Assembly (NCBI GenBank): GCA_040754955.1
Contig: JBFMCA010000007.1
Location: 6,123 to 70,122 of the forward strand
Direction of reading: 5' to 3'
Origin: Acidobacteriota bacterium
GTDB taxonomy: Bacteria; Acidobacteriota; Vicinamibacteria; Vicinamibacterales; UBA2999
DNA length: 64,000 nt
A program made the translations under genes and the position numbers. This document shows positions 8,492 through 35,135 of this stretch, one piece after another. The notes beneath the pieces were generated by a model. The model searched no databases and was not told the origin of the DNA. It saw nothing but the letters and a program-made list of their open reading frames with translations. Position 1 is the first letter of the stretch; the number at the start of each line of letters is the position of its first letter.

Positions 8492-8897
8492 CAGCTCGTG
8501 GCGGAACGTCTCGCCGGGCCTGTCGCCACGGGCTGGCGAGGCCCGCTGCGGCATCTGTCAATTGATGTCAAGAACGCCCACCATAGACGATTGTTTCACA
8601 ACGAGGCATTGATGCCGATGCCTGCCCGGGTGAAATAGCCATCAAATATCAGAAAACAAAGAGTTAATAGGTTGTGGTCCGTTGCGACGCACGCCATCGT
8701 ATGTGTGTCGATTCGGATCATGCCTGTTAAACTACGTCCATTCATATATTTGTAGTCACCATGTGGCCAAGCTCCGGCGCGTGTCTGTCTTGAAACGGAT
8801 CAATGTGTCGCCCCTGGCACCCTCACGCAGGTGATCTATGTGTCCTATAAAGTGCTTTCAGTGAACACGATCGCGCATTCTCGCGTCGGGCCGTCCG
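8492..8897 (+). promoter_or_regulatory. AT-rich intergenic region of about 400 bp, probable regulatory region of the protease-GNAT cassette
   Basis: Marked drop in GC relative to the flanks, no convincing ORF, TGTGTC at 8704, 8804 and 8839. Confidence 0.55.
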
Positions 8898-11123
8898 ATG
8901 TGGCCGACGGATTGCTGTGCCTGCGGCGTGCGACCGAGTCCGCTCCCCGTCATCGCAGTCGTGCTGGTCCTCGTCGGGCTGGTGGCGGCCCCGGTAGCGG
9001 CTGGGTCCAACCACAGGATCGACAAAGCCCTCCGCGACGCGCTCCGGAACCAGAACACCGAGCAGAAGGTCATCGTTCGCGCAAAGGCCGGCTACCGGAA
9101 CTGGCTGCGGCAGGAGCTTCGCAAGCAGGGCAAGACAATTGAGTCCGAGCTCCCGAGCGTCGAGGCCCTCACGCTGAGCCTCGACTCGCGCAGCATTCTC
9201 GCCCTGTGCGCGAGCGCTGCCGTCGAGGGCTGCCATTCCGACGCCGAGGTGATGCCCACCGGGGCGGCCCCGCGCGTGTCCGCGCGGACGTCGGCGGACA
9301 AATCGTCGTCGCCCGCGAGGTCCGCCAGGACGCCGGCGAGGCTGCCGGCTGCCAAGGCGCCGGCGGTGAAGGAGGCGGCCGCCGGGAAGACCGCCAAGGC
9401 CCCGGCGTCGAAGACCGCGGCCGGTTCGCCGGCGCGGCTGAAGCGCCTGGCGCGTCGGACGGACGCCTACGCGAGCCACTACGTCAACACCATGCTGGGC
9501 TCCATCGGCGTCGAACCGAGCTTCGGCAACGGCGCCGGCGTGACGGTGGCGGTCATCGATTCCGGCATCGAGCCGAGCAACGCCTTCGTCGACGACAGCG
9601 GCCGCAGCCGCATCGTGGCGTTCTACGACTTCACCAAGGGCGGGGGGCGCACGCGGGCGTACGACGACTACGGGCACGGCACGCACGTCGCCGGCCTCAT
9701 CGGCGGCCGTCAGTACCTCGGCGACGTGCAGTTCGAGGGCGTGGCGCCGTCGGTGAACTTCGTCGTCGCCAAGGTGCTCGACCAGAACGGCCGCGGGAAG
9801 ACCAGCACGGTCATCCGCGCCATCGAGTTCCTCGTGGCCAACCACGTCAACGGCACGCGCCGGATTGACGTGATGAACCTCTCGCTCGGCCATCCCATCT
9901 TCGAGCCGGCAGCCACCGACCCGCTGGTGCAGGCCGTGGAGATGGCCGCGCGCGCCGGCATCGTCGTGGTCACGTCGGCCGGGAACTTCGGCCAGAACCC
10001 GGAGACCGGCGAGACCGGCTACGCCGGCATCACGTCGCCGGGCAACGCGCCGTCGGCGATCACGGTCGGCGCGTTCGATCACAAGGGCACCGTCGACAGG
10101 ATGGACGACCGCGTCGCGCCGTACAGCTCGCGCGGCCCGACGTGGTTCGACGGCTATGCGAAGCCCGACCTGGTCGCGCCCGGCCACTTCCTCGCGTCCG
10201 AGGCCGCGACGTCGAGCGCGCTGTACGCGGCGTACCCACAGCTTCGCAGGAAGGGGCCGACGGGCAAGACGTTCCTGCAGCTGAGCGGCACGAGCATGGC
10301 GGCCGGCGTCGCTACGGGCGTGGTGGCGCTCGTCAAGCAGGCCCAGCCGCGCGTGACGCCGAACCTGGCGAAGGGCATCCTGCAGTTCACGGCCATACCG
10401 CTCGCGACGGGCGAGGTCGACGCGCACGGCGTGCCCGTGTCGTACGACCTGCTGACGCAGGGCACGGGCGGTGTCAACGCCGAAGGCGCGGTGCGCCTGG
10501 CGATGAGCATCGACCCGTACCAGGGCGCCGGCCGGATCCCGGGTCCGTGGGTGACCGACCTCTGCCGCCGCGACGGGCTCGCGCCGACGGCCCAGGGCGC
10601 CTGCTCGACGGTCTATGCGGGCGTGCGGCACGCCTGGGCCGGCAACATCGTCTGGGGCGCGAACATCGTCTGGGGCGACTCGGTGTTCTACAACCTCCCG
10701 ATCTGGGGCCTCAACATCGTCTGGGGCGCCAACATCGTGTGGGGCATGGACGTGTTCGACGGCGCCAACATCGTCTGGGGCGCCACGCTCGACGAAGGCG
10801 ACAACATCGTCTGGGGCAACAACATCGTCTGGGGCAACAACATCGTCTGGGGGAACTCCTTCGACGACAACATCGTGTGGGGCAGCAACGTCGTCTGGGG
10901 GAACACCTTCCTCCGCTCGAAGGACCCCGCGCGCCCGCTGTTCTTCGACGACAACATCGTCTGGGGCAACTTCACGGACGACAACATCGTCTGGGGCAAC
11001 GTCTTCGACGACAACATCGTGTGGGGCAATCGCTCGCCGCGCGCCGACGGCGACGACAACCGCGGCCAGAGCTTCGACGACAACATCGTGTGGGGCATGC
11101 GCCTGAACGGAGGGCGCGAGTAA
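8898..11123 (+). CDS. Secreted S8 subtilisin-like serine protease with C-terminal NIVWG repeat tail (unit 1)
   Basis: Signal-like hydrophobic N-terminus; triad motifs VAVIDSG / HGTHVAG / GTSMA; oxyanion SAGN; 14 N[IV]VWG repeats. The start could instead be GTG 8928. Confidence 0.92.
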   Translation: MWPTDCCACGVRPSPLPVIAVVLVLVGLVAAPVAAGSNHRIDKALRDALRNQNTEQKVIVRAKAGYRNWLRQELRKQGKTIESELPSVEALTLSLDSRSILALCASAAVEGCHSDAEVMPTGAAPRVSARTSADKSSSPARSARTPARLPAAKAPAVKEAAAGKTAKAPASKTAAGSPARLKRLARRTDAYASHYVNTMLGSIGVEPSFGNGAGVTVAVIDSGIEPSNAFVDDSGRSRIVAFYDFTKGGGRTRAYDDYGHGTHVAGLIGGRQYLGDVQFEGVAPSVNFVVAKVLDQNGRGKTSTVIRAIEFLVANHVNGTRRIDVMNLSLGHPIFEPAATDPLVQAVEMAARAGIVVVTSAGNFGQNPETGETGYAGITSPGNAPSAITVGAFDHKGTVDRMDDRVAPYSSRGPTWFDGYAKPDLVAPGHFLASEAATSSALYAAYPQLRRKGPTGKTFLQLSGTSMAAGVATGVVALVKQAQPRVTPNLAKGILQFTAIPLATGEVDAHGVPVSYDLLTQGTGGVNAEGAVRLAMSIDPYQGAGRIPGPWVTDLCRRDGLAPTAQGACSTVYAGVRHAWAGNIVWGANIVWGDSVFYNLPIWGLNIVWGANIVWGMDVFDGANIVWGATLDEGDNIVWGNNIVWGNNIVWGNSFDDNIVWGSNVVWGNTFLRSKDPARPLFFDDNIVWGNFTDDNIVWGNVFDDNIVWGNRSPRADGDDNRGQSFDDNIVWGMRLNGGRE
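10644..11096 (+). repeat. Coding repeat array, 14x N(I/V)VWG (aac atc gts tgg ggs)
   Basis: Counted in the translation. In frame, with spacer lengths multiples of 3. Confidence 0.95.
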
Positions 11124-11785
11124 TGGAGAAGATGCCCTTCCGCGAGGCGCTCGAGACCACTCCGATCGCGACGACGGCAGAGGTGCCGTCGGTCGTCACG
11201 ACCGACTGGAAGACGGGCCTGCCCCTGCTGGCCGGCGCGGGATTCACGTTGCGTGAGTTGGAGCTCCGGGACGCGCCGTCGCTGCTCGCCATGCTCACCA
11301 CCGACGAAGTGGCTCGGTTCATCTCGCCGCCGCCGACCACCGTCGAGGGGTTCGAGCGGTTCATCCACTGGACCCGCCAGCAGCGCGAGGCGGGCCAGTA
11401 CGTCTGCTTCGGGGTCGTGCCGGCCGGCATGAGCGTGGCTATTGGGATCTTTCAGGTCCGGGCGCTCGAACCCGGGTTTGCCACGGCCGAATGGGGTTTC
11501 GCTTTAGGTTCGGCTTTCTGGGGGACCGGGCTGTTCGTAGAGGGTGCCCGCCTCGTCGTGGATTTCGCCATCGAGACGCTTGGCGTGCACCGGCTGGAGG
11601 CCAGGGCGGCCATCAGCAACGGTCGAGGTAACGGCGCACTGCGCAAAATTGGGGCGATTCAGGAAGGTGTTCTCCGGCGGTCATTTCTGCGAAAAGGGAG
11701 TTTTCAGGACCAGGCACTCTGGTCTATCCTTGACGAGGAATGGCGACTGGCGAAGGCCGTCTGGGGCCCGCGCGTCGTTCACTAA
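11123..11785 (+). CDS. GNAT N-acetyltransferase, RimJ/RimL-like (unit 1)
   Basis: ATG overlaps the protease stop (TAATG). MEKMPF...LRELELRDA, AEWGFALGSAFWGTG, NGRGNGALRKIGAIQEG. Confidence 0.9.
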   Translation: MEKMPFREALETTPIATTAEVPSVVTTDWKTGLPLLAGAGFTLRELELRDAPSLLAMLTTDEVARFISPPPTTVEGFERFIHWTRQQREAGQYVCFGVVPAGMSVAIGIFQVRALEPGFATAEWGFALGSAFWGTGLFVEGARLVVDFAIETLGVHRLEARAAISNGRGNGALRKIGAIQEGVLRRSFLRKGSFQDQALWSILDEEWRLAKAVWGPRVVH

Positions 11786-11805
11786 CCCCCCGTGTCGGTA
11801 GTCGT

Positions 11806-11852
11806 ACGGCTCGCAGCCTCCGGCTGACGGAGGCGGGGCCGTTGTGTTTTTT
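11806..11852 (+). terminator. Putative intrinsic terminator after unit 1
   Basis: gcctccg/cggaggc stem extended by acggc/gccgt, then a T6 run at 11847-11852. Confidence 0.55.
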
Positions 11853-11906
11853 CTCGCGGGCCGTGCGACCGGTCGCGAGTGTGGTCGTCAACCCTGGAGA
11901 CGCTGC

Positions 11907-13961
11907 ATGAATCCCACGCGGGCGGTGCGCCCCGCGGTCTTCGGGCTCGTACTCGGCTTGTGGCTCATTGCCCCGCCGGTCGCGGCCCAGACTGCCGATC
12001 ACGCACCACCAGGTACTGAGAAGCTCGACGCCGCGGTCCGTGAGGCGGTCGCCAGCGGACGCTCGTTCCGCGCCATCGTGCGACTGCGGTCTTCGGACGC
12101 CTCGTCGCGCGAGGAAGCCCGGCGCGCGGTGCGCGCCTTCGGTGGCAGGGTCGATCGCGAGCACGCGGTGATCCCCGCCCTCAACGCGGAGATCGACGCG
12201 GCAACGGCGATGGCCCTCGCCGCCAGTGACCGGGTTGCCGGCGTCTCGATCGACGCGGAGATCCGCGCGGGCAGCGTCGTGGGGTCCGCGCTGACGTCGG
12301 AGGCGAACTCGACCCGGTACCGCCAGGCAAGCGGACAGTCGGGGCAGGGCCGGCGGGGCATCACGGTCGCGATTGTCGACTCCGGCATTCAGCCCCACGC
12401 CGACCTGCCTGCGGAGCGGGTCCGGGCGTTCATCGATTTCGTCAACGGCCGGAGCGAACCCTACGACGACTTCGGGCACGGCACGCACGTGGCCGGCAGC
12501 GTGGCCGGGGCCGGCGGCATGGCGCCCGGCGTGGACATCGTCTCGCTGAAGGTGCTCAGTGGCACGGGCTCGGGCCGCACGAGCGACGTCATCGCCGCGC
12601 TCGAGTGGGTCGCCGCCAACCATCGCGCCTACAACATCCGCGTCGTCAACCTCTCGCTGGGCCACCCGGTGTACGAGCCGGCGGCGACCGATCCCCTCGT
12701 GCAGGCGGTCGAGGCGCTCTCGCGGCGCGGCATCGTCGTGGTGGCGTCGGCCGGCAACATGGGCATCGACCCGCGCACCAACCGCGTCGGCTACGGCGGC
12801 ATCACGGTGCCGGCCAACGCGCCGTCGGCGATTGCCGTCGGCGCCGTCGAGGACGCCGGCGGTCGGCGGTCGCAGGCGCGCGTGACGGACTACAGCTCGC
12901 GCGGGCCGACGCGGTTCGACCTGCTGGCCAAGCCCGAGGTCGTCGCCCGCGGCCACAACGTGGTGTCGCTCGGCGCCCCGGGCAGCTATCTCTACGAGAT
13001 GTACCCGGCGCTGCGCGCCGACGACGGCGGCAACCCGTACCTCAGGCTCTCCGGCACGAGCATGGCCGCGGCCATGGTGTCGGGAGCCGCGGCTCTGGTG
13101 CTCGAGAGCGACCAGCGGCTGTCGGCTGCCGCCGTCAAGGCCGTGGTGCAGTTCACGGCTCAGCGGCTGCCTCGGTACGACGTCCTGACGCAGGGCGCGG
13201 GCTACCTGAACGTCGCGGGCGCGCTGCGGGTTGCGCAGCTCATCGACCCGACCGTGCGGGTGCCCTTCTACTGGCTGAGCACGCGTCAGCTGCCGCTGCC
13301 ATACGACCTGTACGGGCGCGAGCGCGTCGCGTGGAGCAAGACCGTGCTCTGGGGCGATCGGCCGCTGCTCGGCGACTCCGTCTACTTCCACTTCGCCGCC
13401 TGGGACGACAACGTGGTGTGGGGCAATAACGTTGTCTGGGGGAACAACGTCGTCTGGGGCAACAACGTGGTGTGGGGGAACAACGTCGTCTGGGGCAACA
13501 ACGTCGTCTGGGGCAACTGCGTCGGCCGCGGCTGCGACAACGTCGTGTGGGGCAACGACGACGACAACGTGGTGTGGGGCAACCGCCGCGGCGACAACGT
13601 CGTGTGGGGCAACTTCGACAACGTCGTCTGGGGCAACAACGTCGTGTGGGGCAACAACGACGTGGTGCTCGGCACCTGGGCGGCCAACGTCGTCTGGGGC
13701 TTCTGGGACGACAACGTCGTGTGGGGCAACGTCACGCGCGACGCGGTCCGGACCGGCAACGTCGTCTGGGGCAACGATTGGCTCGACAACGTGGTCTGGG
13801 GGAACTGCGACAACGTGGTCTGGGGCAACGACGACAACGTGGTGTGGGGGAACAACGTCGTCTGGGGCAACTGCGACGGCGTGAACGGCGACAACGTGGT
13901 CTGGGGGAACAACGTCGTGTGGGGCAACAGCCTCGCCGTTCTCACAGGGGAGGTGCAGTGA
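11907..13961 (+). CDS. Secreted S8 subtilisin-like serine protease with C-terminal NVVWG repeat tail (unit 2)
   Basis: GGAGA RBS then MNPTRAVRPAVFGLVLGLWLIAPPVAA signal peptide; VAIVDSG / HGTHVAG / GTSMA; 20 NVVWG repeats. Confidence 0.92.
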   Translation: MNPTRAVRPAVFGLVLGLWLIAPPVAAQTADHAPPGTEKLDAAVREAVASGRSFRAIVRLRSSDASSREEARRAVRAFGGRVDREHAVIPALNAEIDAATAMALAASDRVAGVSIDAEIRAGSVVGSALTSEANSTRYRQASGQSGQGRRGITVAIVDSGIQPHADLPAERVRAFIDFVNGRSEPYDDFGHGTHVAGSVAGAGGMAPGVDIVSLKVLSGTGSGRTSDVIAALEWVAANHRAYNIRVVNLSLGHPVYEPAATDPLVQAVEALSRRGIVVVASAGNMGIDPRTNRVGYGGITVPANAPSAIAVGAVEDAGGRRSQARVTDYSSRGPTRFDLLAKPEVVARGHNVVSLGAPGSYLYEMYPALRADDGGNPYLRLSGTSMAAAMVSGAAALVLESDQRLSAAAVKAVVQFTAQRLPRYDVLTQGAGYLNVAGALRVAQLIDPTVRVPFYWLSTRQLPLPYDLYGRERVAWSKTVLWGDRPLLGDSVYFHFAAWDDNVVWGNNVVWGNNVVWGNNVVWGNNVVWGNNVVWGNCVGRGCDNVVWGNDDDNVVWGNRRGDNVVWGNFDNVVWGNNVVWGNNDVVLGTWAANVVWGFWDDNVVWGNVTRDAVRTGNVVWGNDWLDNVVWGNCDNVVWGNDDNVVWGNNVVWGNCDGVNGDNVVWGNNVVWGNSLAVLTGEVQ
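13410..13925 (+). repeat. Coding repeat array, 20x NVVWG, the first six as back-to-back 18-bp units
   Basis: Counted in the translation; synonymous codon variation between copies. Confidence 0.95.
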
Positions 13962-14677
13962 TGAGGAAGATGCACTCCCAGACCGAGTTGATGCGAGCCA
14001 CCACCATGGCGACCCCGACAACGGCCACGACGACCACGACGCCCGCGACGACGCCGGCTGTCGCCGCGCCTTCCGCGCCCGCCGCTCCGACCGCGCCCGA
14101 CTGGCGGCAGCGCCTGCCGATCCTCCGCGGCGAGGGCTTCACGCTCCGTGAGCTCCGCGTCGAGGACGCGCCCGCGCTGATGACCATGCTAACGACGCCC
14201 GAGGTGGCGCGGTTCATCTCGCCGCCGCCGACGAGCATCGAGGGCTTCGAGCGGTTCATCGAGTGGGTCGATCGCGAGCGCGAAGCCGGCAACTACGTGT
14301 GCTTCGCCGTCGTGCCCGACGGCGCGGAGGTGGCCATCGGCCTGTTCCAGGTCCGCACCCTCGAGCCGGGCTTCGGCACGGCCGAGTGGGGCTTCGCCCT
14401 CGGCTCGCCGTACTGGGGCCGGGGCGTTTTCACCGACGCCGCGCGCCTCGTGCTCGACTTCGCCTTCGAGGTCCTCGGCGTGCACCGGATGGAGGCCCGC
14501 GCCGCCGTCGCCAACGGGCGCGGCAACGGCGCGCTCCGCAAGCTCGGCGCCGTCCAGGAGGGCGTGCTGCGGCGCGCGTTCCTGCGACACGGCCAGTATC
14601 ACGACCAGGTCCTGTGGTCGATCCTCGCGGAAGACTGGCGCTTCCTGCGGCTCGATCGCCGGGTCCGGGTGCACTGA
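13961..14677 (+). CDS. GNAT N-acetyltransferase, RimJ/RimL-like (unit 2)
   Basis: ATG overlaps the protease stop (TGATG). Thr/Pro/Ala-rich N-terminus, then a clear paralog of the unit-1 GNAT (ARFISPPPT, AEWGFALGS, NGRGNGALRK). Confidence 0.9.
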   Translation: MRKMHSQTELMRATTMATPTTATTTTTPATTPAVAAPSAPAAPTAPDWRQRLPILRGEGFTLRELRVEDAPALMTMLTTPEVARFISPPPTSIEGFERFIEWVDREREAGNYVCFAVVPDGAEVAIGLFQVRTLEPGFGTAEWGFALGSPYWGRGVFTDAARLVLDFAFEVLGVHRMEARAAVANGRGNGALRKLGAVQEGVLRRAFLRHGQYHDQVLWSILAEDWRFLRLDRRVRVH

Positions 14678-14701
14678 GAGCGTCGTTAGTCACAGCACGT
14701 G

Positions 14702-14735
14702 GCCCGGGCACTCCCCAGGGTGCCCGGGCTTTTTT
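14702..14735 (+). terminator. Rho-independent terminator closing the protease-GNAT cassette
   Basis: gcccgggcac-N8-gtgcccgggc perfect 10-bp stem followed by TTTTTT. Confidence 0.88.
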
Positions 14736-26501: not shown

Positions 26502-26550
26502 CCCAGAGCCCAGAGCTCAGAGCCCAAAGCCCCGAGCCCCGAGCGCCGCC

Positions 26551-27426
26551 ATGCCGACCTACGAAGATCAGATTCGCGCGGACATCGTCGAGGTCGGCCG
26601 GCGTCTGTGGGCGCGGGGGTTCGTCGCCTCCAACGACGGCAACATCTCGGTGCGCCTCGACGAGGGGCGGGTGGTGACGACGCCCACCGGGGTCTCCAAG
26701 GGGTTCATGACGCCGGACATGATGGTCGTCACGGATCTGTCCGGCCGCAAGCTGGCGGGCGAGCGGAACGCGTCGTCCGAGCTGAAGATGCACCTCGAGG
26801 TCTATCGGCTGCGGTCCGACGCACGTGCCGTGGTGCACGCTCATCCGCCGACGGCCACGGGCTTTGCCGTCGCGGGCATTGCGCTCGACCGCGCGGTGCT
26901 GGCCGAGGTCATCACCACGCTCGGCAGCATCCCGATTGCGGAGTACGCGACGCCGTCGACCGACGAGCTGCCGGCGGTCTGCCGGAAGTATCTGAAGGCC
27001 CACGACGGGCTGCTGCTGGCCAACCACGGCGCCGTGGCGCTGGCGGGCGACGTCTTCACCGCGTACTACCGGATGGAGACCATCGAGCATTTCGCCCGCA
27101 TCAGCCTCACGGCGCGGCTGCTGGGCCGCGAGCACCTCATCTCGCGCGAGGAGGTGGAGCGGCTGCAGCAGCTGCGCGGGTCGTACGGCATTCAGTCGCC
27201 GGCGCCGGTGTGCACGGACGACACGGTGCGGGTGGGCGCGGAAGGCGAGCTCGAGTGCCAGGTCGTGCAGGCGCCCTTCTCGGGGGGGCCGCGCCTCGTG
27301 CCGGACACGCCGCTGCCGCGCCCGGCGCGCGAGCCCGCCGGCGTGGGCACGGACGGGGAAATTCGACTAACATACAGCGAGCTGACGGCCCTCATCGAGG
27401 ATGCCGTCCGGAGTCTGAAGACCTAG
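26551..27426 (+). CDS. Class II aldolase/adducin family protein (BMC cargo) with C-terminal extension
   Basis: GNIS, TPTG, SSE..MH, HAHP, LLANHG motifs; C-terminal amphipathic helix LTYSELTALIEDAVRSL. Confidence 0.9.
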   Translation: MPTYEDQIRADIVEVGRRLWARGFVASNDGNISVRLDEGRVVTTPTGVSKGFMTPDMMVVTDLSGRKLAGERNASSELKMHLEVYRLRSDARAVVHAHPPTATGFAVAGIALDRAVLAEVITTLGSIPIAEYATPSTDELPAVCRKYLKAHDGLLLANHGAVALAGDVFTAYYRMETIEHFARISLTARLLGREHLISREEVERLQQLRGSYGIQSPAPVCTDDTVRVGAEGELECQVVQAPFSGGPRLVPDTPLPRPAREPAGVGTDGEIRLTYSELTALIEDAVRSLKT

Positions 27427-27459
27427 GAGCGGGGGCGCAAAGCCCTCGTGGAGGCCGTG

Positions 27460-27750
27460 ATGGGTGAAGCGTTGGGGATGGTCGAGACCAAGGGGCTCGT
27501 CGCGATGATCGAGGCGGCCGATGCCATGGTCAAGGCCGCCAAGGTGACGCTTGTCGGATGGGAGAAGATCGGCGCCGGGTATGTCACTGCCGTGGTCCGC
27601 GGCGACGTGGCGGCCGTCAAGGCGGCCACCGACGCGGGCGCCGCGGCGGCCCGGCGGGTCGGTGAGCTGGTGTCCGTGCACGTCATCCCGCGCCCGCACG
27701 CCAACCTCGAGGACGTCCTGCCGATCGGCAAGGGCAACGCCAAGAGCTAG
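27460..27750 (+). CDS. BMC-H shell hexamer (EutM/PduA/CcmK-like)
   Basis: ALGMVETKG...AADAMVKAA...[10 protein letters not shown]...HVIPRPH; GGAGG RBS. Confidence 0.96.
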
Positions 27751-27765
27751 CGCGCACCCGGCGCC

Positions 27766-28041
27766 ATGCTGCTCGCGCGGATCGTCGGCACCGTCGTGGC
27801 GACGCGGAAGGACCCGCGGCTCGTCAGCAACAAGCTGCTGCTGGCGCGCCCGGTGGATCCGCGCGATCGGTCGAAGCTCGACGGCGGCTACCTGGTCGCC
27901 GTCGACACGGTCGACGCGGGCGTCGGCGAGACGGTGCTCATCGTGAGCGGCAGCTCGGCGCGCATGGCGTCGGGCATGAAGGACTGTCCGGTCGACGCGG
28001 CGGTGGTGGGCATCGTCGACGCCGTCGATCTGGCCGACTGA
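27766..28041 (+). CDS. BMC-P shell vertex pentamer (EutN/CcmL) 1
   Basis: MLLARIVGTVVATRK...VAVDTVDAGVGE...DAAVVGIVD. Confidence 0.95.
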   Translation: MLLARIVGTVVATRKDPRLVSNKLLLARPVDPRDRSKLDGGYLVAVDTVDAGVGETVLIVSGSSARMASGMKDCPVDAAVVGIVDAVDLAD

Positions 28042-28048
28042 CGAGGTC

Positions 28049-28321
28049 ATGCAGATTGCCCGCGTGATCGGCGACGTCGTCGCGACCCGCAAGGAGCCTG
28101 CCTTCGACGGCATCGCGCTGCTCGTGATTCAACCGCTCGCGCACGATCGCACGCCGGTCGGGCGCCCGATCGTGGCGGTCGACACGGTCGGCGCCGGCGT
28201 CGGCGAGGACGTGTTCTTCGTGCGGGGCAAGGAAGCCAGCTTCCCGTTCTATCCCCTCGAGGTCCCGGCCGACGCGGGCATCGTCGGCATCGTGGACCAC
28301 TGGACGACCACCGGCGCATGA
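28049..28321 (+). CDS. BMC-P shell vertex pentamer (EutN/CcmL) 2
   Basis: MQIARVIGDVVATRK...VAVDTVGAGVGE...DAGIVGIVD. Confidence 0.95.
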   Translation: MQIARVIGDVVATRKEPAFDGIALLVIQPLAHDRTPVGRPIVAVDTVGAGVGEDVFFVRGKEASFPFYPLEVPADAGIVGIVDHWTTTGA

Positions 28322-28590
28322 TCCTGGCGCGTGTCGTCGGCGAGCTCGTCTCGACGCAGAAGCGGCCGCAGTTCGAGGGCGCCACGCTGCTGGTGGTGCA
28401 GCCGGAAACGCCGGCGGGCGCGCCGACCGGGGCGACGCTGGTCGCGATCGACTCGGTGGGCGCCGGCCGCGGCGAGCGCGTGCTGGCGGTGCTCGAGGGC
28501 CGGGCCGCCGGCGAGGCGCTGGGGCGCCGGCTCGCGCCGGTGGACGCGGCCATCGTCGGCATCGTGGACCACGTCGAGGTGGCGGAATGA
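28318..28590 (+). CDS. BMC-P shell vertex pentamer (EutN/CcmL) 3
   Basis: MILARVVGELVSTQK...VAIDSVGAGRGE...DAAIVGIVD. Confidence 0.95.
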   Translation: MILARVVGELVSTQKRPQFEGATLLVVQPETPAGAPTGATLVAIDSVGAGRGERVLAVLEGRAAGEALGRRLAPVDAAIVGIVDHVEVAE

Positions 28591-28838
28591 CGGACGACGA
28601 GATCCGGACGCTCGTGCGCGGAGCCATCGCGCGGCATCTGGGCCCGGTCGGCGCGCCAGCCGGCGCAGCGACGGCGAACGCGCTGCATGGCGCAACGCCG
28701 GTCGAGCCGCCGGCGTGGCGGGCGCACCCGAGCTTCGGGCGGTTCCTGCTCCCGCGCGATGCCGGCGATGCGTCGTGCCTCATCGAGCCGTCGGTCCGGT
28801 GCACGCACTGCGGCTTCTGCCAGTCCTACGGCCACTGA
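28587..28838 (+). CDS. Small BMC-associated protein with N-terminal encapsulation-peptide-like helix and C-terminal 4-Cys motif
   Basis: MTDDEIRTLVRGAIARHL ... CLIEPSVRCTHCGFCQSYGH; ATGA overlap with BMC-P3. Confidence 0.75.
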   Translation: MTDDEIRTLVRGAIARHLGPVGAPAGAATANALHGATPVEPPAWRAHPSFGRFLLPRDAGDASCLIEPSVRCTHCGFCQSYGH

Positions 28839-28844
28839 GTCCTG

Positions 28845-29792
28845 GTGAAGCCGCCGGTCCTCCTCACCCGGAAGGTGCCGAGCGCCGTGGTGGCACGGCT
28901 CGAGGACGCCTGCCGTCTCGACCTCTACACGGGACGCGAGGCCATTCCGCGTGACGAGCTGCTCGCGCGGGTGCGGGGCGTCCACGCCCTCATCTGCCTG
29001 CTGACCGACCGGATTGACGAGGCCGTGCTCGAGGCGGCCGGGCCGGAGCTGAAGATCGTCGCGGACATCGCGGTCGGCTACAACAACATCGATGTGGCGG
29101 CGTGCCGCGCGCGGGGGGTCGTCGTCACCAACACGCCCGATGTGCTGACCAACGCGTGCGCCGATTTCACCTGGGCGCTGATCCTCGGCATCACGCGGCG
29201 GCTGGGCGAGGCCGAGCGCCAGCTCAGGCGCGGCGACTGGCAGGGTTGGGCGCTCGACCACATGCTGGGCACGGAGCTCGCCGGCAAGCAGCTCGGCGTG
29301 GTCGGGATGGGCCGCATCGGCCGCGCGGTGGCGGCGAAGGCGCCGGCCTTCGGCATGTCGGTGGCCTACACGGCACGGCGCGCCGTCGATCTGCCGGGCG
29401 CCGAGCGCATGCCGTTCGACCGTCTGCTGGCCACGTCGGACGTCGTGTCGCTGCACGTGCCGCTGGGGCCCGAGACGAGGCACCTCGTCGATCAGAAGGC
29501 GCTCCTCAAGATGAAGCGGACGGCGTTTCTGGTGAACACGGCCCGGGGACCCATCGTCGACGAGGCGGCCCTTGCCTGGGCGCTCGGCCAGGGCATCCTC
29601 GCGGGGGCCGCGCTGGACGTCTTCGAGCACGAGCCCGCCGTGCACCCGGCGCTGCTGGGCCTCGAGAACGTCATGCTCATCCCGCACATCGCGAGCGCGA
29701 CCACGGAAACGCGCACGGCGATGGCCGATCTGGCGGCGTCGAACGTGCTCAACGTGCTGGCGGGCCGCCCGCCGCTGACGCCGGTGCCATGA
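28845..29792 (+). CDS. D-isomer-specific 2-hydroxyacid dehydrogenase (glyoxylate/hydroxypyruvate reductase-like)
   Basis: VGYNNID, TNTPDVLT, GMGRIG, NTARG, LDVFEHEP, PHIAS. Confidence 0.92.
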   Translation: MKPPVLLTRKVPSAVVARLEDACRLDLYTGREAIPRDELLARVRGVHALICLLTDRIDEAVLEAAGPELKIVADIAVGYNNIDVAACRARGVVVTNTPDVLTNACADFTWALILGITRRLGEAERQLRRGDWQGWALDHMLGTELAGKQLGVVGMGRIGRAVAAKAPAFGMSVAYTARRAVDLPGAERMPFDRLLATSDVVSLHVPLGPETRHLVDQKALLKMKRTAFLVNTARGPIVDEAALAWALGQGILAGAALDVFEHEPAVHPALLGLENVMLIPHIASATTETRTAMADLAASNVLNVLAGRPPLTPVP

Positions 29793-30475
29793 GGAAGCCC
29801 CGCCCCGCGGTCGTCGAGCGCGTCATGCGCACGCTGGCCCGCGAGATCGACGGCATGGAGCTGCCGGCCATCGAGAAGATCTCCGAGAGCCAGAAGGAAG
29901 ATCCGTTCCAGGTGCTCATCGGCACGCTGCTGTCGGCGCGCACGCAGGACGCCACGACGCTGGCCGCTTCGCGGCGCCTGTTCCGGCGCGCCCGCACGCC
30001 GCGGTCGATGGCGCGGCTGCCGGTGGGCGAGATCGAGCGGCTCATCTACCCGGTGAGCTTCTACCGGAACAAGGCGCGGTTCGTGAAGGCCACCTGCGAG
30101 GCGATCGTCACGCGGTTTGGCGGGGTCGTGCCCGGCCGGCTCGAAGACCTGGTCACGCTGCCCGGCGTCGGCCGCAAGACCGCGACGCTGGTGCTCATCC
30201 TGGCCTTCCAGAGCCACCAGCACATCTGCGTCGATACGCACGTGCACCGCATCTCGAACCGGCTCCGGTGGGTGCGCACGCGGCTGCCCGAGGAGACCGA
30301 GCACGCGCTGTACCGGGCCGTGGAGGCGCGGTGGTGGCCCTACCTCAACCTCTACCTTGTGACCTGGGGGCAGAACGTCTGCCGGCCGGTGTATCCTCGA
30401 TGCGGCGAGTGCGCGCTGGCGGCCGACTGCCCCAGACACGGCGTCACGGCCGAGGGGCGGTCACGGAGCGCGTAG
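29789..30475 (+). CDS. nth: Endonuclease III
   Basis: LLSARTQD, LPGVGRKTA HhH motif, VDTHVHR, C-x6-C-x2-C-x5-C Fe-S motif. Confidence 0.92.
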   Translation: MRKPRPAVVERVMRTLAREIDGMELPAIEKISESQKEDPFQVLIGTLLSARTQDATTLAASRRLFRRARTPRSMARLPVGEIERLIYPVSFYRNKARFVKATCEAIVTRFGGVVPGRLEDLVTLPGVGRKTATLVLILAFQSHQHICVDTHVHRISNRLRWVRTRLPEETEHALYRAVEARWWPYLNLYLVTWGQNVCRPVYPRCGECALAADCPRHGVTAEGRSRSA

Positions 30476-30501
30476 GCGAAGTGGATTCGTTGGAGGTGAA
30501 C

Positions 30502-31065
30502 ATGTTCGCGCGTGTGCTGGGATCGACCGCGGCGATGGCGCTGGCGGCCCTGCTCGTCCTTCCCGTGTCGGCGTGGGCCCAGGCCCAGACGTCGCCCGGA
30601 GCCGGCGACGTCATCGTCCTCGAGACCGAGAAGGGCACGATCGAGATCGAGACCTACCCGAACGAGGCGCCCAGGACCGTGGCGCACATCCTGGGGCTCG
30701 TGAAGAAGCGCTTCTACAACGGCCAGCGCGTCCACCGCGTGGTGGCGAACTTCGTCGTGCAGCTCGGCGACCCGCAGACGCGGGACATGACGAAGCAGAA
30801 GCAGTGGGGCACCGGCGGCAGCGGCGGCTCGGTTGGCGTGGCGGAATTCTCGAAGACCCGCAAGCACGCGCCCGGCATCGTCTCGATGGCGCATGCCGGC
30901 GATCCGACCAAGGCCGACAGCCAGTTCTTCATCTGCCTGGGCACGCCGAGCCATCTCGACGGCAAGCATCAGATCTTCGGCCAGGTCATCAGCGGCATGG
31001 ACGTCGTGCGCAAGATCGCCGTCGGCGACCGCATCGTCAGAGCAACCGTGCGGGAGGCAAAGTAG
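30502..31065 (+). CDS. Exported cyclophilin-type peptidyl-prolyl isomerase
   Basis: GGAGG RBS, signal peptide, FYNGQRVHRVV, SMAH, SQFFI, HLDGKHQIFGQV. Confidence 0.9.
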   Translation: MFARVLGSTAAMALAALLVLPVSAWAQAQTSPGAGDVIVLETEKGTIEIETYPNEAPRTVAHILGLVKKRFYNGQRVHRVVANFVVQLGDPQTRDMTKQKQWGTGGSGGSVGVAEFSKTRKHAPGIVSMAHAGDPTKADSQFFICLGTPSHLDGKHQIFGQVISGMDVVRKIAVGDRIVRATVREAK

Positions 31066-31945
31066 CCACCAGCCCCTCGAGCGAGGGATAGCGCGCCACC
31101 AGCTCGGCGGGCATCGGCGCCCGGACCGGGTCGTCGAGCAGGTGGCGCAGCATCGTCGCGTTGGCCACGGCCTGTGCGGCGAAGTGGTTGTTCAGGTACA
31201 GATAGGCCTTCTTCACCAGCGCGTTCGCGCGCCGCATCGCGTCGGCGAACGGTTTCAGCTCGGCCTCCGAATACAGGTAGTCGTAGCGGTCCTCGGCCTC
31301 GGCGTGATCCCACCACGCGGCGGCATTCCGGCCGTGGAAGCGCACGTACAGCAGGCCGCCGGAGCGCGGCTCGAAGTCCTGGACGATGGACGAGGAGAAC
31401 TTCGGCTCGTCGATGTGGGCCAGCGACACGCCGCGGGCCGCGAGGCGCGCGAGCGCGCGAACGTCGTCGCTCCACGTGCGGTGGCGCAGCTCGACCACCA
31501 GCGGGTAGGCCGCGAAGGTCGCCGCCAGCCAGTCGAGATACTCCTGCGCCTCGGGCGTGTTGTGGAAGCTCGGCGGGAACTGGGCCAGCACCGCCCCGAG
31601 GCGGCCCGCGGCGGCAAGCGGCTCGATGCCGCCCTCGAACGCCGCGATGTCGTCCCGCGAGATGGGTGCCCGGTCCACCGCCATGCGGGGGTGCGTGAAC
31701 TTCTGGTACAGCTTCACCGAGAACGAGAACCCGGCGGGTGTGCGGCGCACCCACGACAGCGAGACGTTCGCGCGCGGCTGCCCGTAGAACGTGGAGTTGA
31801 CCTCGACCGTGTCGAAGCGAGCCGCGTAGAATGCCAGCTCGTCGAAGCCGCGCGGCCGGTCCTCGGGGCGCGGGTAGAAGAGGCCGTCCCACGTCCCGCG
31901 CCCGGCGGGGTAGTGCCAGCCCGACGTGCCGATGTGCAGCTCCAT
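31037..31945 (-). CDS. DUF72 family protein
   Basis: IGTSGW, VEVNSTFY, QFPPSF, YVRFHGRN, YDYLYS, YLNNH. Confidence 0.9.
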   Translation of the reverse strand: MELHIGTSGWHYPAGRGTWDGLFYPRPEDRPRGFDELAFYAARFDTVEVNSTFYGQPRANVSLSWVRRTPAGFSFSVKLYQKFTHPRMAVDRAPISRDDIAAFEGGIEPLAAAGRLGAVLAQFPPSFHNTPEAQEYLDWLAATFAAYPLVVELRHRTWSDDVRALARLAARGVSLAHIDEPKFSSSIVQDFEPRSGGLLYVRFHGRNAAAWWDHAEAEDRYDYLYSEAELKPFADAMRRANALVKKAYLYLNNHFAAQAVANATMLRHLLDDPVRAPMPAELVARYPSLEGLVATLPPARLL

Positions 31946-31978
31946 GAGAAAATGAGGGTCGGGCCTATTTTCTCCCCG

Positions 31979-32620
31979 ATGCTGACGGTCAACGAAATCT
32001 TCCACTCCATCCAGGGCGAGTCCACCCACACGGGCCGCCCGTGCGTCTTCGTGCGGCTGACGGCCTGCGACCTCCGGTGCTCGTGGTGCGATACGCCGTA
32101 CGCGTTTCACGAAGGGCGCAGGATGTCCGTGGACGAGGTGCTGGCCGAGGTGGCGCGCTACGGCTGCGACCTCGTCGAGGTGACCGGCGGCGAGCCGCTG
32201 CTGCAGAGCGACGTGTACCCGCTGATGGAGCGGCTGCTGGCAGAAGGACGCACGGTGCTGCTCGAAACCGGCGGGCACCGCAGCGTCGCCCAGGTGCCGG
32301 CCGGCGTCGTGAAGATCGTGGACGTGAAGTGCCCCGGTTCCGGCGAAGCCGACAAGAACGACTGGTCCAACCTGGCCCGCCTGGCGACCCGGGACCAGGT
32401 GAAGTTCGTCATCAGGGACCGCGCCGACTACGAGTTCGCCCGCCGCGTCGTGGAGCGGGAGGGGCTGACGGCCCGGACGGCCGCGGTGCTGTTCTCGCCG
32501 GTGCACGGCGTGCTCGAGCCGCGCGAGCTGGCTGCCTGGATCCTGCACGATGGCCTGCGCGTGCGACTGCAGCTCCAGGCGCACAAGTACATCTGGGGCG
32601 CGGAGGTCCGGGGCGTCTGA
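31979..32620 (+). CDS. queE: 7-carboxy-7-deazaguanine synthase (radical SAM)
   Basis: [32 protein letters not shown]. Confidence 0.95.
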
Positions 32621-33291
32621 TGCAGGCGGCGGTCGTGCTCCTGAGCGGCGGTCTCGATTCGGCGACCGCGGCGGCGGTGGCCCGACGCGAGGGTTTCGCC
32701 CTGCATGCCCTGACCGTCCGCTACGGGCAGCGGCACGCCCAGGAGCTGGCTGCCGCGCGCGCCGTCGCGCGCGCGCTCGGCGCGGCGCGCCATCTCGAGG
32801 TCGATGTCGACCTCCGGAGCATCGGCGGGTCGGCGCTCACCGCCGGCATCGACGTCCCGAAGGACCGCCCGCTCGATCACGCGGACATCCCCGTCACCTA
32901 CGTCCCCGCCCGCAACACCGTGTTCCTGTCGCTGGCGCTCGGGTGGGCCGAGGTGCTCGGTGCGGCCGACATCTTCATCGGCGTGAACGCACTCGACTAC
33001 TCGGGCTATCCCGACTGCCGGCCGGCGTTTATCCAGGCCTTCGAGCGCCTGGCTGCGGTGGGGACCCGGGCCGGCGTCGAGGGCCGGCGCCTGCGGGTCC
33101 ACACGCCCCTGATCTCGATGACGAAGGCGGAGATCATCCGGCTGGGGCTGTCGCTCGGCGTCGATTACGGCCTGACGCACAGCTGTTACGATCCGCCGTC
33201 CGACGGCCGACCCTGCGGCCGCTGCGACAGCTGCCGTCTCCGAGCCGCGGGGTTTGCGCAGGTCGGTGTTCCTGACCCGCTCGTCGTCTGA
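32620..33291 (+). CDS. queC: 7-cyano-7-deazaguanine synthase
   Basis: [27 protein letters not shown]. Confidence 0.96.
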
Positions 33292-33317
33292 CGCCTGCTG
33301 CTAGGATCGAGGATCCC

Positions 33318-35135
33318 TTGGCCCCGCCACTCCGCCGCCGATTCGCTGTCGCCGCCACCGCGGTGTCCATCCCGCTGCTGGCGCTGACGATGCTCTCGGG
33401 ACGGTTGACCTACCTGCAGGAGCGGGAGGAGCTCGCGCAGGAGACGCGGACGACGGCCGTGACCGTCGTGGCGTACCTGAACCGGATGCTGACCTCCGCC
33501 GACAGCGTGGCGGTCGCGCTGGCCGAGCACCCAGCCGTGCGCCAGCTCGACGAGGCCGCGCTTGCCGTCGTGCTGCCCCGACTGACCACGGCCCTGGTCG
33601 AGAACATCGTCGTGGCCACGCCCGCGGGGCGGCCCGTGTCGTGGGCGCGGGCGCCGGAGCCTTCGGTCGAGGGCGCGCTCGATCCGTCGTTCCTGGCCCG
33701 TGTCGCGGCGGTGGGCCGCATGCAGGTGAGCCGGGTCATGGGTCAGCCGGGCGCGGCGCGCCACGCGGTGGTCATTGCGTACCCGGTCAGGGACGAAGGC
33801 CGCACGGTGGCGGCGCTCGGCTTCGTGGTGCGCACGGAGGCAGCCGAGGACGTGCTCCGCAACATCCCGCTGCCGCCGGGGTCGGTCGTGACGCTTTCCG
33901 ACGATCGGAGCGTGGTGGTCGCGCGCAGCCGCGAGTCCGCGGCGTACGTCGGCCGGGCCATCGAAGCGCCGGGGCAATCGCGGAGCGTCGAGGACGTGCC
34001 CTCGAGCGTGATTCGCGTGGGCGTCGACGGCGTGGAGCGCGTGTTCGCCAACGACGTCGTTGAACGGGGCGGCTGGCTGGTGAGCGTCGGCATCCCGACC
34101 GCGGTGGCCTGGGAGCGGTCGTGGCCGATCATGCAGCGGAATCTCGCCATACTCGTCGGGGGCGCCGTGCTGATCTCGGCCCTGATGGTCTCACTCGGCC
34201 GCCGGTACCTGAAAGCGTTCGACTACTTCGAGGCCGCCGCCGCCCGCGTCGCGGCCGGAGACTTCAGGCCACCGCCTCGCCAGGCGATGCCGGTCCAGGA
34301 ACTCGAGCGGCTGCAGGCGGCGTTCACCGACATGGCGGTCAAGCTCCAGCGGGCGCACGATGCCATCGAGCACCAGATTGCCGACGAGCGGCGCATGCGG
34401 GGCGAACTGCAGTCGCTGCAGCAGCAGGTGATCCGCCAGGAGCGGCTGGCGGCCATCGGCGTGCTGGTGTCCGGCGTGGCGCACGAGCTGAACAACCCGC
34501 TGCAGGCGATCCTGGGATTCGCGGAGCTGCTGCAGATCAGGCACGAGCTGCCCCAGAGTGTGAGGGACGACCTCGGCCTCATTCAACGCGAGAGCGCGAG
34601 GGCCAGCGCGATCATTCGCAACCTGTCGCGCTTCGGCCGGCAGCAGGCGCCCGACCCGACGGCCGTGCTGACGCGCGACCTCCTCGAGGCGGTCGTCGAG
34701 CTGCGGCAGCGCAAGTGCGAGGAGCAGGGCATCCTGCTCGAGATCGAGGATCGAGCCCGGACGCCGATGCTGGCCGTGTTCACCGAGCTCCAGCAGGTGC
34801 TGCTCAACTTCGTCATCAACGCGGAGCAGGCCGTGATGTCCCGGCCGGACGGTCAGCGCCGCATCACCATCCGGACCCTGGACGCGGACGGGCGCGTGCG
34901 CGTGGAGGTCGAGGACAGCGGCGCCGGCGTGCCGCCCGAGCACGAGGCGAAGCTGTTCCAACCGTTCTTCACCACCAAGCCGGTGGGTGAAGGCACCGGG
35001 CTTGGCCTGTCGGTCAGCTACGGCATCGTGGAGTCGTACGGCGGCACGATCGGATACCGCAAGGCGTCCACCGGCGGCGCGCTCTTCTTCTTCGAGCTGC
35101 CGGCCCTCACCGAAGAGGATCTCCTGGCCGAATGA
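33318..35135 (+). CDS. Membrane sensor histidine kinase (Cache-like sensor, HAMP, HisKA, HATPase)
   Basis: Two TM segments; AHELNNPL H-box, NFVINA N-box, DSGAG, PFFTTK, GTGLGL. Confidence 0.92.
   Translation: MAPPLRRRFAVAATAVSIPLLALTMLSGRLTYLQEREELAQETRTTAVTVVAYLNRMLTSADSVAVALAEHPAVRQLDEAALAVVLPRLTTALVENIVVATPAGRPVSWARAPEPSVEGALDPSFLARVAAVGRMQVSRVMGQPGAARHAVVIAYPVRDEGRTVAALGFVVRTEAAEDVLRNIPLPPGSVVTLSDDRSVVVARSRESAAYVGRAIEAPGQSRSVEDVPSSVIRVGVDGVERVFANDVVERGGWLVSVGIPTAVAWERSWPIMQRNLAILVGGAVLISALMVSLGRRYLKAFDYFEAAAARVAAGDFRPPPRQAMPVQELERLQAAFTDMAVKLQRAHDAIEHQIADERRMRGELQSLQQQVIRQERLAAIGVLVSGVAHELNNPLQAILGFAELLQIRHELPQSVRDDLGLIQRESARASAIIRNLSRFGRQQAPDPTAVLTRDLLEAVVELRQRKCEEQGILLEIEDRARTPMLAVFTELQQVLLNFVINAEQAVMSRPDGQRRITIRTLDADGRVRVEVEDSGAGVPPEHEAKLFQPFFTTKPVGEGTGLGLSVSYGIVESYGGTIGYRKASTGGALFFFELPALTEEDLLAE

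Follow-up and report, generated by a model that had tools for sequence, protein, structure and literature searches.

In-place, array-wide switching of a short tryptophan motif in the tails of acetyltransferase-coupled subtilases of an Acidobacteriota bacterium and its relatives

Introduction

A 64,000-nucleotide stretch of DNA from an Acidobacteriota bacterium of the order Vicinamibacterales (assembly GCA_040754955.1, contig JBFMCA010000007.1, positions 6,123 to 70,122 of the forward strand; hereafter the window) encodes two neighbouring paralogous units, each consisting of an S8-family subtilase and a GNAT-family acetyltransferase. Both subtilases end in a tail built from many copies of one short tryptophan motif, which is almost always NIVWG in unit 1 and always NVVWG in unit 2. 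What keeps the copies within a tail so alike, and why do two adjacent paralogs use different versions? The initial annotation of this DNA proposed that the dialects are a specificity code, with each paralog keeping to its own. We find instead that in relatives whole tails change letter together, apparently in place, that adjacent paralogs usually have the same dialect, and that no column of the protease or the acetyltransferase tracks the change. Selection is likely to underlie the switching, which points to the tail being a ligand read by a partner.

Two subtilase-acetyltransferase units and their tails

Both units lie on the forward strand. The unit 1 subtilase (8898..11123, start codon unconfirmed) has a signal-peptide-like N-terminus, a propeptide, the catalytic motifs and a repeat tail (10644..11096), and the unit 2 subtilase (11907..13961) carries its tail at 13410..13925. 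Both match PF00082 over the cut-off (E 1.8e-49 and 7.7e-46, respectively) with intact Asp/His/Ser motifs. In each unit the S8 stop codon is overlapped by the ATG of a GNAT matching PF13302 over the cut-off, i.e. the RimJ/RimL-type GNAT 1 (11123..11785, E 3e-22) and GNAT 2 (13961..14677, E 7e-26). Signal peptides, present on the S8s and absent from the GNATs, were judged by eye and without a predictor. The two proteases are 48% identical and the two GNATs 65%.

The motif counts of the initial annotation were confirmed: tail 1 holds 14 copies (13 NIVWG and one NVVWG, at 10887), and tail 2 holds 20 NVVWG and no NIVWG. A six-frame search found the motif nowhere else in the window. The reported synonymous variation is real for the Val and Gly codons, which are GTC 10/GTG 4 and GGC 12/GGG 2 in unit 1, and in unit 2 are GTC 12/GTG 7/GTT 1 at position 2, GTC 11/GTG 9 at position 3 and GGC 15/GGG 5 for Gly. 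It does not extend to Asn, since every one of the 34 copies encodes the motif Asn by AAC and the AAT codons that had been noted belong to spacer Asn residues; the motif Ile is always ATC.

The spacers are variable and often acidic, as had been noted for the window, and across arrays 924 of 1194 motif copies have D or E directly ahead of the motif. The shortest motif period is always six (204 cases, none of five), and the repeat unit is therefore really a hexapeptide, although motif spacing is irregular and ranges from 6 to 44 residues. Spacer Cys is, as annotated, confined to unit 2 within the window (4 residues), but it is not tied to V: of the arrays elsewhere, 68 of 95 I arrays contain Cys, as do 4 of 7 V arrays. 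The arrays are no artefact of assembly, as contigs from public runs of three studies (one possibly the source) agree with the greater part of both tails at 0-1 differences.

Copies within an array change together

Statistics on the I/V choice at position 2 were calculated for 114 distinct S8s, taken from GNAT-selected loci and the source genome, which gave 102 arrays with at least six N[IV]VWG motifs. The choice clusters strongly by array, with an intraclass correlation coefficient (ICC) of 0.64 compared with at most 0.04 in shuffles. The V share was at most 10% in 82 arrays, 10-25% in 13, near even in one and at least 75% in six; these six V arrays contain no Ile in 83 N[IV]VWG motifs, and their Val codons are mixed. 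Switches of whole arrays are also seen at other positions, giving NIIWG, DIIWG, WGQ, WGH and WS.

We used 36 disjoint close pairs of arrays to follow silent codons. Orthologous copies had the silent Val base in common in 243 of 393 cases, compared with 202.6 when positions were shuffled, and silent codons are thus, by this comparison, inherited copy by copy. The most direct view of a switch comes from locus L178 and its relative L060, whose catalytic domains are 93% identical: the residue after the motif has changed from N to H in 12 of 17 copies of L178, but the adjacent Val codons of the switched copies are evenly divided (6 GTG/6 GTC) and mostly match L060 position by position (p about 0.01 for a single conversion donor). 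An independent protein, P0096, has the same pattern. At the protein level, P0080 carries 14 V and 5 I motifs on the spacer scaffold of its all-I sister P0084 (89% identical), and the S8 columns that are invariant in its sisters are unchanged in P0080. The silent-codon inheritance and the L178 switch favour selection acting at the protein level. That part of the initial annotation which invoked selection on the peptide and array-wide uniformity therefore gains support from the ICC, the inherited codons and L178; its claim that the uniformity is specific to each paralog does not (see below).

Fold of the tail

The model of the unit 2 subtilase has a subtilisin fold with a propeptide. The propeptide and catalytic domain fold confidently and are followed by a short beta-rich segment (13284..13409, residues about 460-500, pLDDT (predicted local distance difference test) about 90) that contains a degenerate motif, TVLWG; the model is folded to about residue 500, and the tail is not. 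AlphaFold gave a pLDDT of 33 for tail 2 alone and, when supplied with a 118-row alignment for unit 2, values under 50 for residues 507-601 and 613-684, a low confidence that is compatible with a fold. The top Foldseek match of unit 2 is pro-Tk-SP (PDB 3afg, E 5e-31), a subtilase of the same S8 fold with a propeptide and a C-terminal extension, and homologs are automatically labelled AprX or S8. Our proteins differ from pro-Tk-SP and AprX-like subtilases in that the extension is a motif array without a confident fold, and no Pfam or NCBIfam family over its cut-off covers the tail.

The tail could nevertheless remain attached to the enzyme as a structural or anchoring module, through homotypic beta-stacking (amyloid-like or as a beta-roll) or through a surface-binding Trp/acidic face, in which case like would stack on like and produce uniform arrays. 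In keeping with this, tail 2 has a weak match to the NxVxG beta-roll family LbR_Ice_bind (24.3 of 30 bits, below the cut-off), the minimal period is constant, the top Atlas cluster has Hexapep on 16% of its members (at a low recognition score), and spacer landmarks and Cys pairs are conserved. However, AlphaFold produced no confident tail fold with or without an alignment, the motif spacing is irregular, and homotypic stacking would penalise the first copies to change, yet partly switched arrays exist. A structural tail would also leave unexplained the single KAVWG copies in cytoplasmic positions and the coupling to GNAT or MASE9 genes that are described below. We therefore consider it unlikely, although it is the alternative that survives best.

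Protein-level or DNA-level uniformity

Alternatively, slippage, gene conversion or GC drift might have produced the dialects neutrally, with selection on xxWG only. The ICC at silent sites is 0.10 for Val and 0.05 for Gly, compared with 0.003 for Val in the catalytic domain, indicating that some homogenisation of arrays does occur at the DNA level; moreover, I/V is a conservative exchange, V arises many times without a co-varying residue, and copy number varies widely. On the other hand, silent codons are inherited by position, switched copies retain their unique spacers and mixed silent codons, and similarity between copies does not rise with proximity (0.376 for adjacent vs 0.377 for distant copies). 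GC pressure was rejected as a cause, since the catalytic domains have no excess of I-to-V over V-to-I changes (42 vs 40 in 14 pairs) and equal GC content at third codon positions (0.88 vs 0.89), and switches against GC occur too (NIIWG). A neutral origin of the dialects is accordingly quite improbable. The idea that the repeats serve as a DNA or G-quadruplex motif was likewise rejected, because of the variation in silent codons and the existence of Trp-Ser arrays.

Adjacent paralogs usually use the same dialect

The clean difference between units 1 and 2 is what a code separating paralogs would produce, but it was not reproduced in relatives. Homologs of unit 2, found with a V array as query and aligned for 117 of the 120 listed, comprise 97 I arrays, 8 V arrays, 2 mixed and 10 unscored, and although mostly I arrays they retain the spacer landmarks of tail 2. 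At the same chromosomal site, five loci carry orthologs of both units and all five are I/I, as are all of six further tandem pairs from metagenomes (duplicates dropped). At other loci with at least two arrays, position 2 is alike in 25 of 27, the exceptions being an opposite-strand gene and a truncated array. The source genome has eight arrays, namely NIVWG in unit 1 and on contig C171, NVVWG in unit 2 and on C6, T/SIVWG in three arrays on C22, and IIVWG on C63, so each of the window's two dialects recurs in a paralog elsewhere in the genome. NIVWG is, on these counts, the family default in GNAT-linked genes, and the I/V contrast between units 1 and 2 is an exception among neighbouring paralogs.

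For tree and Mantel analyses we used 98 S8-GNAT pairs, including 7 V arrays. On the GNAT tree V required 7 changes and on the S8 tree it required 8, compared with 7.8 for shuffled labels; the V arrays are therefore separate terminal switches. Nor did the motif variant co-vary with the protease pocket, as the initial annotation had anticipated. In 15 nearest V/I pairs of S8s (one I partner fragmentary), with pocket positions placed by subtilisin numbering, the pocket segments were identical in several sister pairs; no S8 column rose above the null (largest column asymmetry p 0.12), and the same held over the first 500 residues (p 0.18).

The signals for the expected link with the cognate GNAT were mixed. 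In partial Mantel tests, all of which ignore kinship, motif similarity followed GNAT identity given S8 identity (0.18, p 0.008, at position 2 and 0.36 at the +1 residue, in a reduced set of 89 pairs with 9 long-branch GNATs dropped; 0.30 and 0.49 in all 98 pairs) more than it followed S8 identity (-0.11 and 0.09, 89 pairs). However, the tail and the GNAT are neighbours on the DNA and linkage might account for this correlation; there was neither a column nor a tree signal for I/V: no conserved GNAT column was altered in more than two of the six GNATs linked to V arrays, although with only 6-7 V arrays that have a GNAT the power for I/V is low. Two GNAT columns tried as diagnostics failed, i.e. 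column 133 on the full set (48 of the I-linked GNATs have I there and 40 have V) and a column changed in both L178 and L069, which varies in 20 of 90 I-linked GNATs. At L052, L107 and L046, tandem GNATs up to 89-90% identical stand beside S8s that are only 46-47% identical, a pattern that suggests GNAT replacement or conversion between units and fits poorly with GNATs matched to individual proteases. Because neighbouring paralogs normally share their dialect, it is no device for insulating them, and the proposal that each dialect is matched to its own protease pocket and GNAT, making the units separate channels, is the least probable explanation of all.

Candidate partners of the tail

In 83 S8s from relatives and the source genome, a set enriched for GNAT loci, the next gene encodes a GNAT in 27 cases, a MASE9 protein in 22 (with HD-GYP, GGDEF or kinase outputs) and neither in 34. 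MASE9 sensors are absent from the two units of the window, but the array genes on C22 and C63 adjoin MASE9 membrane domains. On C22 (11320-18692), three tandem T/SIVWG subtilases follow a MASE9 histidine kinase, and two of them have, as the next gene, a short MASE9-like membrane gene that stands alone and lacks an output domain. A preprint on MASE9 (PF20972; bioRxiv 10.1101/2021.11.05.467447) suggests, in passages that name no ligand, that ligand binding takes place within the membrane; the words 'protease' and 'peptidase' do not occur in its main text. N occupies position 1 of the motif in 24 of 27 arrays linked to a GNAT and in 6 of 22 linked to MASE9; all informative independent pairs point in the same direction, but after tree correction p is 0.25-1. 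At one conserved site the S8 comes immediately after a peptide ABC importer, an arrangement that could simply reflect synteny.

The nearest solved structure to the GNATs of the window is the RimJ/RimL-type N-acetyltransferase TTHA1799 (PDB 2z0z, E 9e-18), from which class they differ in forming a distinct subfamily that is coupled to S8s and often ends in KAVWG. A single motif copy of this kind is present at the C-terminus of GNAT 1 (11753..11767) and absent from GNAT 2. Across the 98 pairs such a copy, mostly KAVWG, is found at the GNAT C-terminus in 33 and immediately ahead of the S8 signal peptide in 15, but in no pair at both, although the independent events are few. K-x-[VT]-W-G copies were seen, in addition to the one in the window, at L046, L052, L073, L085, L097, L098, L100, L104, L107, L110 and C171 (twice just before the S8 signal peptide in the last), and most GNATs of these loci end in a conserved His. 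At the other end of the protein, 79 of 169 GNAT frames (window 11123 and 13961) begin with a conserved M[ER]K[MI]P-like sequence and continue into a low-complexity linker that is variable. Double-domain GNATs (frames of about 420-490 amino acids) occur beside paired MASE9-HD-GYP genes at L028 and L033-L036, some without an adjacent S8.

Family distribution and genomic surroundings

The GNAT subfamily is present in 37 of 60 relatives and related S8s in 48 of 60; in a sample of 150 genomes of the phylum the GNATs occur in three, all of the same order as the window genome, and GNAT relatives come mostly from Vicinamibacterales or Acidobacteriota. The source genome has only three GNATs of the subfamily for its eight arrays. 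No overlap was found that would link its contigs C171 and C216. On C6, a gene at 27369-33356, some 3 kb away from the subtilase, encodes a predicted exported protein of 1995 amino acids with many tandem DIENP pentapeptides.

The two units are flanked by genes that we take to be fabH-like and queA-like. An AT-richer intergenic stretch (8540-8880) precedes unit 1; no sigma-70-like promoter was seen at the units, including this stretch, and Rfam gave no match between 8300 and 15000. Terminator-like hairpins follow unit 1 (11825..11844) and unit 2 (14701..14730), both on the forward strand and identified by consensus match only, and the two found compare with 2.6 expected in the region by chance. 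Further away, at about 26550-28590, lie what are presumably an aldolase-like gene, a microcompartment shell gene and three EutN/CcmL-like genes.

Discussion

We propose that the tail is a peptide ligand in many copies, read by a partner protein, and that its preferred letter shifts throughout the array, a reading in which our confidence is evenly balanced. Each unit would comprise a predicted secreted subtilase with a tail of 14-20 copies of the motif, from which the peptides are probably excised by the protease itself. The partner may be the coupled GNAT, often with its own KAVWG copy, or the MASE9 membrane sensor that takes its place as the alternative downstream gene. Selection likely keeps all of the copies within a tail alike, and when the preference of the partner shifts, the new letter would be adopted by one copy after another. 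In unit 2 all of the copies would have changed to V in this lineage only, with the ancestral spacers kept.

Several observations weigh against this proposal. Cleavage, export, binding and acetylation are all predictions. Since the GNAT appears to be cytoplasmic and the tail to be exported, a meeting of the two would be limited to the time before export or after re-import. I/V is tracked by no GNAT or S8 column that would point to the partner behind the switch; dialect similarity does track GNAT identity once S8 identity is allowed for (in the Mantel tests that ignore kinship), and MASE9 similarity adds nothing to S8 similarity as a predictor of dialect (partial r 0.04, p 0.35, n 22). The silent sites show some array-level homogenisation relative to the catalytic domain, and slow-changing amino-acid sites would give a higher ICC even under conversion. 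The in-place test at the DNA level comes from one lineage, L178, and from the +1 position rather than I/V. Finally, freely mixed arrays occur (L015 with 5 V/4 I, and also L022, L037 and L135).

A more specific version of the ligand proposal, which taken as a whole we think is rather unlikely, is that of a protease-borne pheromone. Here the secreted protease would carry and release many hexapeptide copies, MASE9 sensors would read them at the membrane, and the Vicinamibacterales GNAT would bind or acetylate the Asn-type peptide, gated by its terminal KAVWG mimic. The dialects would be pherotypes that sweep all copies by parallel point mutation, with unit 2 on a private channel.

Precedents exist for the individual elements. 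In Bacillus, Phr/CSF and PapR are exported precursors of short, pentapeptide signals that undergo subtilisin-type processing and vary in sequence between lineages. By analogy, the window's subtilases would also hold short peptides within an exported precursor with lineage variants, and at one site a peptide ABC importer is nearby; they differ in having the protease and many peptide copies in one chain, with a GNAT or MASE9 neighbour in place of an RRNPP regulator. Among 23 neighbour representatives scanned we found no adjacent TPR-type RRNPP receptor with a small separate precursor gene, the neighbours being GNATs, MASE9 sensors, the ABC importer and housekeeping genes. Multi-copy precursors such as cyanobactin PatE (with PatA/PatG), Kex2-processed fungal repeat proteins and alpha-factor consist of repeated short units with spacers, uniform within a gene. 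The tails are built in the same way but without a leader or dibasic sites. The PatA model scored far below its cut-off (26-43 of 421 bits), the PatA/PatG and separate PatE arrangement of cyanobactins was not found, and no maturase of ribosomally synthesised and post-translationally modified peptides other than a GNAT was seen. A literature search, thin on subscription papers, found no publication describing this protease-tail module.

The narrower claim of a code that separates units 1 and 2 was not borne out. The new contributions are the evidence on dialect change, the test that went against a paralog code, and the KAVWG copies. An amino-acid switch that runs in place across a whole array and leaves the silent sites untouched is the pattern expected of a ligand following a partner, and it occurs in a protease-GNAT/MASE9 module that is abundant and uncharacterised. 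If the tail is indeed a released signal, it would provide a ligand for MASE9 and a self-contained system of peptide communication in a largely uncultured order of Acidobacteriota.

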